IMG/VR virus record: IMGVR_UViG_2778261420_000014
Length of the DNA: 5,666 nt
Source: a virus
Taxonomy: Duplodnaviria; Heunggongvirae; Uroviricota; Caudoviricetes
Strand: one strand, 5' to 3'
Under the pieces are notes generated by a model that was given only the letters and a program-made list of their open reading frames with translations, made no database searches and was not told the DNA's origin. A program made the position numbers and the translations under genes. Shown here piece by piece: positions 1,453-5,666 of this stretch. The number at the start of each line of letters is the position of its first letter. Positions within the stretch are counted from its first letter, which is position 1.

Positions 1453-2505
1453 TTATTTCCCCACCAGTTCACTTACCTCTTTCACTGTCTGGTTAAACCG
1501 ATCTGACTCAAGCTCAACACCTAACGCCCGACGCCCCAGCTCCATTGCTGCTTTTATTGTGGAACCAGATCCCATAAAAAAATCAGCAACCAGATCACCT
1601 GGTCGACTACTGGCATTGATTATTTGCCGGAGCATATCCGCCGGTTTCTCACACGGATGTTTACCCGGGTAGAACTGAACGGGTTTATGCGTCCAGACAT
1701 CGGTATAAGGCACGGAGACTGATACGGAGAAATAGCGCCGGAGAGATTTAAACTCATCCAGCAATTCAGAATATTTGCGATTCAGTGAATCATAAGATGC
1801 CACCAGCTGGTGGTGTGGTTGTTCCAGTTGTTGTTTCTGAAACTTCTCTGCCGCTATACGGGAAAAAAGTGCCTGCAACTTCCGGTAGTCAGCCTCATTC
1901 GGCAACTGCCACTGACTGGCACCAAACCAGTGGGAAACCATGTTTTTCTTACCAGTGGCTTCGGCAATCTGTTTTGCCGTTATACCCAGTTCGGCACGTG
2001 CATCCCTGAAATACGATATCAGCGGTGCCATTATGTGCTGTTTGAGTTCCCTTTCTTTTTCCGCATAGCCGTCACTTTTGCCGCGATATGGCCCCTGGTA
2101 ATGTTCAGCAAACAGAACGCGCTCTGTGGCAGGAAAATATGCGCGCAGACTTTCTTTATTACACCCATTCCAACGTCCGGACGGCTTCGCCCAGATGATA
2201 TGGTTAAGCACGTTGAAACGTTCACGCATCATGATCTCAATATCAGATGCCAGGCGATGCCCACAGAACAGGTAAAGGCTTCCGGCAGGTTTCAACACCC
2301 GCCAGAACTGGGCCAGACAGTGGTCCAGCCACTTAAGGTAATCTTCGTCCCCTTTCCACTGATTGTCCCAACCGTTGGGTTTCACCTTGAAGTAAGGCGG
2401 ATCGGTAACAATCAGGTCAATGGAATCATCAGGCAGGGACTGAATAAAATGCAGGCAATCAGCGTTGATTAAATCAACACTGTTTATTTTTACAGTATTT
2501 TTCAT
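1453..2505 (-). CDS. Orphan DNA methyltransferase, beta-class N6-adenine/N4-cytosine amino-methyltransferase (PF01555-like)
   Basis: 350 aa. N-terminal DPPY motif (DLIVTDPPYF, motif IV) and C-terminal FxGxG SAM-binding motif (DFFMGSGST, motif I), with HPCEKP between; the IV-before-I order defines the beta group. No adjacent restriction endonuclease gene in the window. Confidence 0.9.
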   Translation of the reverse strand: MKNTVKINSVDLINADCLHFIQSLPDDSIDLIVTDPPYFKVKPNGWDNQWKGDEDYLKWLDHCLAQFWRVLKPAGSLYLFCGHRLASDIEIMMRERFNVLNHIIWAKPSGRWNGCNKESLRAYFPATERVLFAEHYQGPYRGKSDGYAEKERELKQHIMAPLISYFRDARAELGITAKQIAEATGKKNMVSHWFGASQWQLPNEADYRKLQALFSRIAAEKFQKQQLEQPHHQLVASYDSLNRKYSELLDEFKSLRRYFSVSVSVPYTDVWTHKPVQFYPGKHPCEKPADMLRQIINASSRPGDLVADFFMGSGSTIKAAMELGRRALGVELESDRFNQTVKEVSELVGK

Positions 2506-2654: not shown

Positions 2655-2873
2655 TCATTGCTGAAGGCGTCTGTAACAGCCGAACTGGTAATCTACCAGC
2701 CCCGCCATAACCAGCTGGGTCAGTATTAACTGACAGCGTTCGCGTGAAAGGTATGTGTTTTGTGCAATCTCCCCGACTGTTGCCGGTTCGATGCTTAATT
2801 CATTAAAAACAACTTTCGCCGTTTCTGTCATATCTTGCTGTTTTAGCATGTCTTTTTCCCTTCTGGTTAACAT
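2655..2873 (-). CDS. Small hypothetical protein with a possible helix-turn-helix / winged-helix segment
   Basis: 72-aa ORF; the segment TVGEIAQNTYLSRERCQLILTQLVMAGLV looks like an HTH recognition region. The likelier start is the internal ATG at 2849 (64 aa), which has AAGGGAAAAAG about 8 nt upstream; ATG 2873 lacks a clear SD. Function is inferred only. Confidence 0.5.
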   Translation of the reverse strand: MLTRREKDMLKQQDMTETAKVVFNELSIEPATVGEIAQNTYLSRERCQLILTQLVMAGLVDYQFGCYRRLQQ

Positions 2874-2971: not shown

Positions 2972-2996
2972 AAAAAAACCGCTCGACGGCGGGTTT
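2972..2996 (-). terminator. Candidate intrinsic terminator upstream of the minus-strand gene block
   Basis: Minus-strand RNA would fold as AAAC-CCGC / GCGG-UUU (4 GC pairs plus 3 A-U pairs with one bulged residue, 6-nt loop) followed by a U7 tract (complement of A-run 2972-2978). The short GC stem keeps confidence modest. Confidence 0.35.
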
Positions 2997-3041: not shown

Positions 3042-3079
3042 TTGCGTACGCGTTAGTAATTTATTATGCTCTTTACAAT
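3042..3079 (+). promoter_or_regulatory. Candidate sigma70-type promoter region for the plus-strand two-gene cassette
   Basis: AT-rich region directly upstream of the cassette. Weak hexamer candidates: TTGCGT (3042-3047), a 17-nt spacer, then TATGCT (3065-3070); alternative -10-like TATTAT (3062-3067) and TACAAT (3074-3079). None is close to consensus; exact placement is uncertain. Confidence 0.2.
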
Positions 3080-3094
3080 TGTTAGCTTAACCGC

Positions 3095-4261
3095 ATGGAA
3101 TTGACCAAAAAAATGAGCAAAGCAAGCATACGCCACGTAATCGTTCATGAGCTCTTAAAAGAATCTAATAAAGACTTCGATCACTCCAAACCATACAATC
3201 TTCGTGATACAGAACTAGATAAAACAAATGATATAGTAAAAAAATTAGTAGACGGTGTTATTGATTTGTATGGTTCAAAAGGGAACTCAGCGCATTATGG
3301 TGTTTTTATTAAAAATAAAACAAAGCAAGGCCCTATACCAGAACTATTTCATAAATACTCTTTAGTTCAACAATCTGTTTCAAGTGATTTCATTGAATTA
3401 TCGAAGGAAGTTATGAAACAAATGTATAAATCTGCTCAAGAGCAGATTTGGGCTTCTGGAGGATATGTTGTTTTTACTGATTATATTTTATCTGGTTTCC
3501 GTTATCTATTGGTTACAATGATCAAAAAAACTAATGGCGTAACTATTAGTGAAAATTTAGAGCCAGAGGAAATGATTCACTTAGAACTTGGTAATATTAA
3601 CCAAGCAGCAAAAATAAATTTCAGATATTATGAAGAATACCAAAAAGCAGATGACTTAAAAAAAACAGACTTAAGTTATCTAAGCTTTATAAGCAAAACT
3701 ACGGGACAGTCAGCGGCAGCATATTTTATAGCAGCATTAGGATGTGACAAGGGGATTGCTTCAGCAGGTGCAACCCGTAAGTTACCAGATGAAATAAGGC
3801 GTTTCTTTAAGAAAGAACCTCTTTTAAAAAATCAAGCAGAGTCATTTAGAAATGATGTTATCAAATACTTAGAAAAGCAATTTGACAACGAGCACTCTGC
3901 AAGGCTTTCTGATATCGAATCGCTTGCTTCAGGCCATATGTCCGATTTAAAAGAGGAAGAAAAAACAGAACTTGTTGATAAATTAATGAAACACCTCAAT
4001 AGTGAGGAAGTCAGAATCCCATCAGAGTTCGTAATCAATAAAAACTCCTTAGATAAAATCCGCAATGTGATATATAAAACCCCATCATTGAGCTTTCACT
4101 TCGACAAGGATTTACTCGGTGTCACAACTGATGCTAAAATATATTATGATGACGAAAACCAAAGCCTAACATTTAATAATTTGCCTGTTGAAGCATTAAC
4201 TAAGATAAGAAGAGCGTTGAAAGAAACTGATAACCCGAGTAATGAAGAAGATAAAGAATGA
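3095..4261 (+). CDS. NdpA/YejK-like nucleoid-associated protein homolog (PF04245-like), divergent
   Basis: 388-aa ORF. Segments parallel remembered E. coli YejK motifs along the whole length: [10 protein letters not shown] vs [44 protein letters not shown] vs [60 protein letters not shown] vs [24 protein letters not shown]; C-terminal [12 protein letters not shown]...LTFNNLP vs LTINFDAMLLG...LTIKGTPP. The true start may be ATG 3113 (MSKASIRHV...), which aligns with the YejK N-terminus. Stop overlaps the next start (ATGA at 4258-4261). Confidence 0.8.
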   Translation: [388 protein letters not shown]

Positions 4262-5484
4262 ATGATTTTAGTATAATAGTTAATCTGTATAGATTATCAA
4301 GCTATCCTCATTTTGACGGGGCTAAGTTTTCTGCGCGTATAGCTTATAATGCAGACGTAAAATCATTGTTCAAAAGAATTTTGAACCCTACTTTTCAAGC
4401 TGGTACAGCTGACGAAATAGAGGTGGATGGTCATTTAATTTATGATTATGAAGACTTTCCTGAAAAGGGAAATTTTCTTACATACTCGTTTAAAATTTCA
4501 CAAGGAAGTGCGAATCGTTTTTATAAAAATAAAAACGAGTTTGTAAAAATAAACACGCTCAAGAAAGGCATAATGCCAGAATATTTCTATATTATAGAGG
4601 ATGATTTCTATTCATTAGAAACACCAAAACCTTCTTATATCCAAAAAATTGAGGACATTTGTGAGCTAATCAATGCTCTTTCCATGCTTGCTCATTTCCA
4701 TGATATAAAAAAAGATAGCAAAGGTACATTTTATCGTTTAGTCTTTATTTTAAACTCAGAGTCTAAATCTTCTTCTGCTGTAATTGAAACAAATATTACA
4801 GAAGAAATTTTTAATGATAAAACAGTAAATACTCAGTTAGTTAAAACATTAGTAAGTAGTGAAGCTACTACTGATGCCCATCACATTGAAAAGATTAACA
4901 CTTTCAGAAACACAGTTATTGAGTATGTTAATAAAAATGGAAATTCCTTTGTCGAGTTAATTAACAAGTGGGATTTCATATGCGAACTTTATACGAACAA
5001 CTTAGCTGCTTATATGTCGGCATTTTCTTTTCATAAAGCAAGGAAAGAAGTTGTTGATGCTGAACTCGATTACTCAGAAAAACTGTCAAAAATAATTTCA
5101 GAAATTTCTAACAAAGCTCTTGCAATACCTATTTCACTAGCTGGTTCAATTGCTATTTTCAAATTAACAACAAAAACTGATTGGATTATTGCTTTAATTG
5201 GATTGATTATCACAGCAATAATAACATCTGCAATGATTGTGTCACAAAAAAAACAACTCGCTCGTATTTCACACTCTAAAGAAATACTTTTTGGACAATT
5301 AAGATATAGAATAAAGGATGACACCAGCGATCTTAAAGAGAGCTTAGAAGAGGCTATTAAAAAATTAAATGACAATGAGGATTTTTGTCATAAGGTGCTT
5401 GACAGTTTATTATCACTAGCATGGATGCCTACATTCATAGGCATCATCGGTATTTTATTTAAATTAATGCCAAATATTACTTGA
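4258..5484 (+). CDS. Hypothetical membrane protein: ~285-aa N-terminal domain of unknown function plus three C-terminal TM helices
   Basis: 408-aa ORF overlapping the upstream gene by ATGA. Predicted TM segments: ALAIPISLAGSIAIFKL (~aa 287-303), WIIALIGLIITAIITSAMIVS (~aa 309-329) and LLSLAWMPTFIGIIGILFKLM (~aa 383-404), with a charged ~50-aa linker between TM2 and TM3. No recognisable catalytic motif in the N-terminal domain. Confidence 0.8.
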   Translation: MNDFSIIVNLYRLSSYPHFDGAKFSARIAYNADVKSLFKRILNPTFQAGTADEIEVDGHLIYDYEDFPEKGNFLTYSFKISQGSANRFYKNKNEFVKINTLKKGIMPEYFYIIEDDFYSLETPKPSYIQKIEDICELINALSMLAHFHDIKKDSKGTFYRLVFILNSESKSSSAVIETNITEEIFNDKTVNTQLVKTLVSSEATTDAHHIEKINTFRNTVIEYVNKNGNSFVELINKWDFICELYTNNLAAYMSAFSFHKARKEVVDAELDYSEKLSKIISEISNKALAIPISLAGSIAIFKLTTKTDWIIALIGLIITAIITSAMIVSQKKQLARISHSKEILFGQLRYRIKDDTSDLKESLEEAIKKLNDNEDFCHKVLDSLLSLAWMPTFIGIIGILFKLMPNIT

Positions 5485-5666
5485 GCATGTACATAACCCC
5501 ATTAATGAAACCTAACGCAGTCTGCAATTGCTTCCGGATTGTTCCATCTGAGCATCTGCGTCTCTTCGCAATAGAACGCAGTGAAATACTGGATTTGCCC
5601 CTATATTTCCAGACACCTGTTATCACTTAACCCATTACTGGCCTGCTGCCGCAGATATTCCCGTGG

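Follow-up and report, generated by a model that had tools for sequence, protein, structure and literature searches.

A prophage-borne two-gene cassette related to the anti-phage systems DS-1 and type II PANGU

Introduction

Two groups have recently described anti-phage defence built on a YejK-like nucleoid protein, and the branch that acts through a membrane effector (DS-1, type II PANGU) is the least understood. Here we examine two adjacent genes, gene A (3113..4261, plus strand) and gene B (4258..5484, plus strand), in the Caudoviricetes record IMGVR_UViG_2778261420_000014 of IMG/VR. The window is the whole stretch of 5,666 nucleotides that was analysed, and coordinates refer to it unless another locus is named. 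Gene A encodes a YejK/NA37-type nucleoid-associated protein of 382 amino acids, and gene B encodes a predicted membrane protein of 408 amino acids. We consider it probable that the two genes, carried by a prophage, make up an abortive-infection defence cassette of the DS-1/type II PANGU kind. This reading is carried by the homology of the pair to DS-1, the kinship of gene A with YejK, the domain layout of gene B, the genomic slot, and the fact that the two genes co-occur and diverge in step.

The DefensePredictor paper (PMC13092281; Science 2026; bioRxiv January 2025) validated 42 systems, of which DS-1 is the first. The two DS-1 genes, listed under the working identifier D390, encode WP_000355468.1 (DS-1A), a YejK/NA37 protein of 391 amino acids with an N-terminal zinc ribbon, and then WP_000150292.1 (DS-1B), of 404 amino acids (PMC13092281). 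Cloned alone in MG1655 under its native promoter, DS-1 gave -log efficiency of plating (EOP) values of 7.6 for Bas1, 2.7 for Bas26, 1.7 for Bas3 and T3, and 1.0 for T5; T7 and SECphi27 formed small plaques (PMC13092281). Table S10 of the same paper lists WP_016159279.1, at 4258..5484 (+) of NZ_NORX01000078.1, as a 'predicted novel defense gene' with a log-odds score of 13.05 (PMC13092281). This entry is exactly gene B, with the same coordinates and strand, and the window is very probably the listed contig.

More recently, type II PANGU was posted as a preprint in April 2026, where it corresponds to Cluster 2 of operons containing nucleoid-associated proteins (NAPs) (10.64898/2026.04.06.716658). 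It combines the YejK-like Pag2A with Pag2B, which has an acidic N-terminal 'DNA-mimicking' domain and a C-terminal transmembrane domain. In the E. coli example, PANGU-Ecu, protection by abortive infection requires both genes and the single genes are non-toxic, which the authors take as an argument against a classical toxin-antitoxin system. T4 escapes through mutations in denA (EndoII), Pag2A-GFP departs from the nucleoid upon infection, and the N-terminal domain of Pag2B binds Pag2A with a dissociation constant (KD) of 19 nM (10.64898/2026.04.06.716658).

A divergent subfamily of the DS-1 family

Both proteins of the window are recognised by the NCBIfam models made for DS-1. Gene A matches NF053868 (DS1_1_antiphage, 'nucleoid-associated anti-phage protein') with 99.1 bits (E 2.6e-28), its residues 64-360 aligning to positions 78-367 of the 369-position profile. 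Gene B matches NF053869 (DS1_2_antiphage) with 100 bits (E 1.5e-28), residues 86-397 aligning to positions 31-336 of 337. Neither reaches the cut-off of its model (330 and 315 bits), and gene A and gene B are best classed by sequence as homologues of DS-1A and DS-1B rather than as equivalogs. Direct BLASTP comparison gives 24% identity over 224 residues for gene A and DS-1A (E 6e-11) and 22% over 223 residues for gene B and DS-1B (E 8e-11). A profile built from the close family of gene B aligns to DS-1B over profile positions 88-387 with 59.5 bits.

The two pairs share their layout: a YejK-like gene comes first, a partner of about 400 amino acids comes next, and both lie adjacent on one strand. 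Their sizes are alike (382 + 408 amino acids in the window, 391 + 404 in DS-1), most of gene B aligns collinearly with DS-1B, and both partners receive high DefensePredictor scores. They differ in spacing, with a 2-bp gap between the DS-1 genes and a 4-bp overlap in the window, and the hydrophobic segments of gene B are stronger than those of DS-1B. Word-seeded searches with gene B and DS-1B retrieve separate sets of Enterobacterales proteins. Given this separation, the identity of 22-24% and the scores below cut-off, sequence comparison places the window pair in a distinct, divergent subfamily inside a large DS-1-related family.

An earlier reading of the window, made by a model from the sequence alone (the sequence-only reading), had put the pair forward as a candidate undescribed system. 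That part does not stand: DS-1 is published, NCBIfam holds models for both of its proteins, gene B is itself in Table S10, and type II PANGU has been posted. The DS-1/type II PANGU kind is thus already known and named, and gene B had already been flagged by a published predictor. The pair looked unnamed because PADLOC-DB v2.0.0 (2023) finds nothing. No model there matches gene B, and a DrmC match to gene A (E 0.049) is at chance level and was rejected.

Gene A is a YejK paralogue

The longest open reading frame (ORF) of gene A in the list for the window spans 3095-4261 on the plus strand. Homologues share a uniform start, M-x4-I-x-H-V-I-V-H-E-L, and the six-codon extension from 3095 is unconserved; several homologues have an in-frame stop immediately 5′ of the start, and PGAP also calls the start at 3113. 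On these grounds the ATG at 3113, giving 382 amino acids, is most likely the true start rather than 3095.

The sequence-only reading had recognised an NdpA/YejK-like DNA-binding protein here, and database comparison agrees. Pfam NA37 covers the full length of gene A (E 2.3e-50), which also aligns over residues 5-366 with the structure of E. coli YejK (PDB 9be2, E 5e-15), and matches phrog_3767 among the PHROGs (E 2.6e-98). Against the NCBIfam YejK equivalog model, NF001557, it scores 134 bits, below the cut-off of 341. Gene A is a YejK paralogue recruited into the cassette and not the housekeeping protein.

Gene B has the layout of a predicted membrane effector

Gene B had been described from its letters as a C-terminally membrane-anchored partner, which is right as far as it goes: a C-terminal hydrophobic helix, the predicted last transmembrane segment, covers residues 381-403 (5398..5466, plus strand). 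A hydrophobic helical hairpin also lies further in, at residues 287-330 (5116..5247, plus strand), and is the predicted first and second transmembrane segments (TM1-TM2). Kyte-Doolittle hydropathy in 19-residue windows peaks at 287-305 (1.6), 307-329 (2.76) and 380-403 (1.9, maximum 1.94). The full-length AlphaFold2 model has a mean predicted local distance difference test (pLDDT) of 85.7 and places helices at 289-302, 306-351 and 390-403. In this model an alpha/beta N-terminal part and a helical bundle are followed by a long helix (238-287) that leads into the hydrophobic hairpin, a helical arm and the terminal helix. The arm, of ~50 residues between the hairpin (~287-330) and the last hydrophobic helix (~381-403), is modelled as a cytoplasmic helical stretch.

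The soluble alpha/beta N-terminal domain comprises residues 1-236 (4258..4965, plus strand) and, by analogy with the 'DMK' domain of Pag2B, is proposed as the docking site for gene A. Over residues 1-285 the protein is mildly acidic (isoelectric point (pI) 5.46, net charge -8), as is the equivalent part of DS-1B. The domain has no structural relative among PDB structures. A PDB sequence search with the gene B profile likewise found no relative, a match to the YbgF coiled-coil (E ~0.05) being rejected, and Foldseek against viral structures returned nothing at E<=1e-3. Gene B has no Pfam family above threshold; the only candidate, DUF4456, scored 14.5 bits against a cut-off of 27.5 and was rejected. 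It does match phrog_5023 (E 7.5e-139).

Conservation was mapped over 103 diverse members of the gene B family. The most conserved positions are P291 (100%), K286 (98%), L141 (96%), Y252 and F256 (92%), and K260 and F163 (90%). K286, P291, Y252, F256 and K260 all lie within the helix abutting the first hydrophobic segment, and the most conserved stretch of the family (245-293) runs directly up to the hairpin. W389 and P391 are conserved as well. Close relatives show invariant or almost invariant H146, H148, D149 and K170, but the H-x-H-D motif of this close subfamily is not kept across the broad family. Because the best-conserved residues abut TM1 and this motif is not broadly kept, the pattern speaks more for a gated membrane effector than for an enzyme.

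The two genes travel together

The pair forms a compact operon. The ATG of gene B shares 4258-4261 with the TGA of gene A, so that the genes overlap by 4 bp in the sequence ATGA (gene B ORF 4258-5484, plus strand). GC content is 0.29-0.37 over the pair and 0.47-0.54 in the adjoining phage genes. An overlapping, AT-rich pair was what the sequence-only reading had reported, and both features are confirmed.

That reading had also proposed conservation of the pair across genomes as a check, and the outcome is clear. A gene A relative lies directly upstream of a gene B relative on the same strand in 59 of 59 related loci, namely 11 of 11 in genomes and 48 of 48 in viral contigs. The 11 species-representative genome loci, with 33-53% identity, come from Shigella, Ewingella, Pantoea, Xenorhabdus, Pectobacterium, Providencia and Proteus. 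Among the 48 IMG/VR contigs, 47 satisfy a strict criterion of <120 bp between the two genes. Conservation of the two ORFs extends down to ~31-45% identity, and the pairing has no exception: it is kept in the most divergent metagenomic relative (31% identity) and in Klebsiella phage P7641, the sole isolated phage found, whose relative is 48% identical by protein search. Such association occurs far more often than chance would give. Across 30 loci, identity to the window is correlated between A and B (r = 0.96), which is the pattern that interacting partners moving together would show.

A distant pair, with B 25% identical, is found on the Pseudomonas putida conjugative plasmid p716811-VIM (locus L022, 6858-13418), so the family is not confined to prophages or to Enterobacterales. 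This MOBF plasmid carries VIM, and around the pair lie a NACHT-domain gene, 2 kb off, and an MvaT/MvaU gene.

The family is large. A HMMER search of 1.84 billion representatives with the gene B profile returned 993 clusters (50% identity) at E<=1e-3 and 197 at E<=1e-30; the best 150 of the 993 matches are mostly 400-430 amino acids long and are matched nearly end to end. Contigs encoding the exact gene B protein number 533, and ~0.5% of complete E. coli genomes carry the cassette. The two genes are currently labelled 'nucleoid-associated protein' and 'hypothetical protein'. Megablast of the window against phage genomes recovered only the insertion-sequence (IS) end of the window and flank fragments. 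In two relatives, from Shigella flexneri SFBU0723 (L005, ~6860-9180) and the stink-bug symbiont Pantoea sp. Eser (L012, ~6864-9089), both genes align piecewise in different frames; these copies look decayed or may hold sequencing errors.

A fixed slot between antiterminator Q and the lysis genes

The setting of the pair is best seen in an intact copy from E. coli YF-1 (CP161809), where a lambdoid prophage is integrated beside tRNA-Thr and proA. Antiterminator Q lies on one side of the pair and the methylase, lysis and head genes lie on the other, with the pair on the opposite strand. The window has the same order: its left flank carries minus-strand genes for a DNA methylase, a lambda-type holin, an endolysin and a DUF2570 spanin, and the transcription opposite to the phage genes noted from the sequence is borne out. 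In loci from Pectobacterium, Edwardsiella and the Klebsiella phage the head and lysis modules differ, yet Q and the lysis genes always flank the cassette, which is inverted. A Q homologue converges just downstream of gene B in 48 of 48 viral loci.

DS-1 relatives use this slot as well. In Klebsiella/Enterobacter prophages (L023, 8754-11224; L024, 8823-11224), cassettes with 86-87% identity to DS-1B are inverted and flanked by antitermQ and holin/lysozyme genes, as in the window. Since these DS-1B-like cassettes occupy the window cassette's slot, two subfamilies only 22-24% identical alternate at one hotspot. A prophage hotspot had been named among the possible settings to look for, and it is here a single slot.

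The slot has two edges. On the gene A side lies a conserved element of the phage backbone (2993..3066, minus strand), most likely the late promoter pR' with a Q-utilisation (qut) site and leader. Over 47-72 nt this element of ~70 nt is 84-92% identical in L018, L021, L023 and L024, DS-1-type loci included; L016 conserves an 18-nt core, and a 14-mer of the element lies upstream of gene A in 42 of 48 IMG/VR loci. It is followed by a hairpin and T-run (2972..2994, minus strand), found in a terminator scan and probably the terminator tR', with equivalents in L021, L023, L024 and the empty site L074. On the gene B side lies Q, of which the window holds a 3′ fragment (5477..5589, minus strand; annotation from CP161809) that runs convergently to gene B and shares 8 bp with its end.

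The element was considered as a part of the cassette, such as an operator, and this was rejected: it is shared by loci whose cassettes have no DNA similarity, and it follows Q directly where there is no cassette. In cassette-free prophages of 15 E. coli genomes the element and terminator come directly after the Q stop codon. These empty sites were found with a shorter chimeric query in blastn mode; megablast with a chimera of Q, the element and the downstream ORF had found none. The element and hairpin are probably the late promoter with its qut site and tR', and the cassette would be an insertion exactly at the Q/pR' junction. The sequence-only reading had placed the pair inside the prophage late region. 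The prophage is lambdoid and the late genes are adjacent, but with Q on one side and the probable late promoter on the other, the cassette precedes the late transcript and is not contained in it.

The cassette's own promoter and leader are presumed to lie in the 46 bp directly before gene A (3067..3112, plus strand). Unlike the neighbouring element, these bases are not shared between loci; a TACAAT at 3074-3079 is a candidate promoter motif. A consensus promoter scan gave 11 sites against 11.6 expected from shuffles, which is no excess. The window has no Rfam match at E<=0.1, and the leader/terminator region folds no better than shuffles (z = -0.57).

Proposed mechanism and alternative explanations

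Anti-phage activity, its trigger, binding between the two proteins and an abortive outcome are carried over to the window from the literature on its relatives. By analogy, gene A, the predicted DNA-bound sensor and the counterpart of DS-1A/Pag2A, would sit on chromosomal DNA in the uninfected cell, apart from its partner. Gene B, the predicted membrane effector and the counterpart of DS-1B/Pag2B, would be anchored in the inner membrane through its hydrophobic hairpin and C-terminal helix. An incoming lytic phage that degrades the host chromosome would release gene A, and the free protein could then bind the soluble, mildly acidic N-terminal domain of gene B. Binding would switch gene B on, and the infected cell would end its support of the phage, most likely through loss of membrane integrity. 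For the specific trigger and docking steps we put the chances at roughly even. The presumed own promoter and the place between Q and the probable late promoter would make expression in the lysogen possible, without Q-dependent read-through. Low GC, an orientation opposite to the late genes and a place outside the probable late transcript are the features of a moron. The sequence-only reading, which guessed at a prophage moron with a sensor and a membrane effector and an abortive outcome, gains support here through homology to DS-1 and the architecture of type II PANGU.

Several points weigh against this assignment. Identity to DS-1 is just 22-24%, function in this subfamily is predicted from homology, and both NCBIfam scores are about one third of the equivalog cut-offs (99 against 330 and 100 against 315 bits). 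Gene A lacks the zinc ribbon (CxxC...CxxC) that DS-1A has at its N-terminus. Gene A also scores higher on housekeeping YejK (134 bits) than on the DS-1A model (99 bits), and for this reason the nucleoid-associated proteins of the two subfamilies may have been recruited independently. The likeness to type II PANGU is a likeness to its described architecture, and the acidity of the gene B N-terminal domain (pI 5.46) is only modest. According to the preprint itself, the engagement, activation and action of Pag2B are still to be determined (10.64898/2026.04.06.716658). DS-1 acts on Bas1, Bas26 and T3 and PANGU-Ecu on T4 (PMC13092281; 10.64898/2026.04.06.716658); because these ranges differ, the trigger may not be universal. 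To the same list belongs the IS that cuts Q in this copy, although it leaves the cassette itself unaffected.

It is unlikely that the pair instead serves the prophage's own biology, either as a DNA-membrane tether formed by contact between A and B (in replication, packaging or lysis timing) or as a factor for lysogeny maintenance or exclusion of related lambdoid phages. Nearly every copy of the cassette sits at one fixed position of lambdoid prophages, beside Q and the lysis genes; DNA binding is a property of YejK-type proteins, and gene B is predicted to be membrane-bound; and PHROGs file gene A under 'DNA, RNA and nucleotide metabolism'. However, related prophages with the same Q and element are cassette-free, and the cassette is therefore dispensable for the phage. 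It is also AT-rich, inverted and outside the probable late transcript, and distant pairs sit on Pseudomonas conjugative plasmids, one of them 2 kb from the NACHT-domain gene. DS-1 alone, moreover, restricts unrelated lytic phages in MG1655 (PMC13092281). It is very unlikely that the pair is a toxin-antitoxin or addiction module that stabilises the prophage instead of sensing infection, with gene B as a membrane toxin and gene A as the antidote. The translationally coupled (ATGA) operon of a soluble and a membrane protein would suit such a module, as would the tightly correlated divergence of the two proteins, and toxin-antitoxin modules do occur at this and neighbouring prophage positions (BrnT/BrnA in L018, for example). 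Against it, the putative antidote is large (382 amino acids) and has a full YejK fold rather than that of a small labile antitoxin, and in the type II PANGU example single genes are non-toxic and both are needed (10.64898/2026.04.06.716658).

The last alternative keeps defence and common ancestry and changes the working: the trigger could be a phage protein, or phage DNA bound by gene A, or the gene B N-terminal domain could have an activity of its own. The low identity to DS-1, the differing phage ranges of DS-1 and PANGU-Ecu, the (near-)invariant H146, H148, D149 and K170 of the close subfamily and an N-terminal domain with no known fold relative all leave room for it. Yet the H-x-H-D motif is not kept by the wider family, the strongest conservation falls in the helix next to TM1, where membrane gating is a better explanation than catalysis, and the overall architecture of gene B is collinear with that of DS-1B. 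We regard this version as improbable and retain the DS-1/type II PANGU reading.

Neighbouring features and related loci

At the right end of the window, an IS element, of which 5590..5666 (strand not assigned) is one end, interrupts Q and is not part of the system. These 77 bases match DNA annotated as InsD or transposase at 97-100%, the match to intact prophages ends at 5589, and the contig stops within the IS. With its Q gene interrupted, this prophage may be unable to turn on its late genes.

The first genes of the late operon include one for a 350-amino-acid N6/N4 DNA methyltransferase (1453-2505, minus strand), with a weak HTH_3 match in mid-protein, and one for a 72-amino-acid protein (2655-2873, minus strand) with weak, sub-threshold winged-helix matches (TrmB, DprA_WH, MarR_2). 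Other loci have different cargo at the first late-operon position, such as an Endonuclease_NS gene in Pectobacterium. In E. coli Combat2C1 (CP019243; L074, 2893-4179), genes for a scabin-related ADP-ribosyltransferase and a subtilase-family AB5 toxin B-subunit, and then holins, lie past the element and terminator; this toxin cargo is at the position where Stx phages carry stx.

The Edwardsiella prophage L018 carries, in addition to the cassette, a BrnT/BrnA toxin-antitoxin pair in the early region and an AbiH-family gene near its end (14792-15308 and 20693-21221), and so holds several candidate defence genes. The uropathogenic strain E. coli UPEC85 (CM137000; L025, 1584-3955) has a cassette variant in the same slot with different lysis genes (essD, rrrD), from which it follows that the cassette travels between lysis modules. 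As evidence that PANGU-Ecu is the window cassette, the UPEC85 variant proves nothing.

Significance and comparison with known systems

The window does not add a new kind of system. What is new is an intact, widespread and divergent second subfamily, 22-24% identical to DS-1, together with a conserved core that runs through the whole family: the helix 245-293, with K286 and P291 beside the first transmembrane segment. The gene B N-terminal domain, which has no relative among solved structures, is new as well, as is the finding that both subfamilies occupy one precise slot of lambdoid prophages, from Q to the probable late promoter. These results should allow better annotation of the two genes and comparative experiments between the subfamilies.

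RexAB and Kiwa likewise consist of two genes, one for a membrane protein and one for a soluble component, and cause abortive infection or exclusion. Neither has a sequence relationship to the window pair, as judged from the known and candidate defence-system models of PADLOC-DB, and gene order and domains differ, in agreement with the sequence-only reading, which had set them apart. Chromosomal YejK (NdpA, 9be2) aligns with gene A over the full length and belongs to the same NA37 fold family. Unlike it, gene A is prophage-borne, AT-rich and always paired with gene B, and its 134 bits compare with the cut-off of 341 on the YejK model. Type I PANGU (Pag1A with the GRel toxSAS Pag1B) shares the YejK-like sensor and a proposed binding of the nucleoid-associated protein to a DNA-mimicking effector domain. 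Its effector, however, is a soluble alarmone-synthetase toxin, whereas gene B is a predicted membrane protein with no Pfam family above threshold.

The design of type II PANGU matches that of the window pair. Its core gene encodes a YejK-like nucleoid-associated protein, as gene A does (NA37 E 2.3e-50; 9be2 E 5e-15). Its operons are bicistronic with <40 bp between the genes, and the window pair overlaps by 4 bp, with adjacency in all 59 related loci. The partner's soluble N-terminal domain and C-terminal transmembrane region are matched by gene B in hydropathy and AlphaFold2 models. There are differences: the N-terminal domain of Pag2B is an acidic DNA mimic and that of gene B is only modestly acidic, and the window cassette occupies a prophage hotspot, whereas the preprint stresses linkage to defence islands and the word 'prophage' is absent from its text (10.64898/2026.04.06.716658). 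Nonetheless, the logic of type II PANGU, with a nucleoid-bound sensor, a membrane effector and an abortive outcome, is the same as that guessed for this pair from its sequence.

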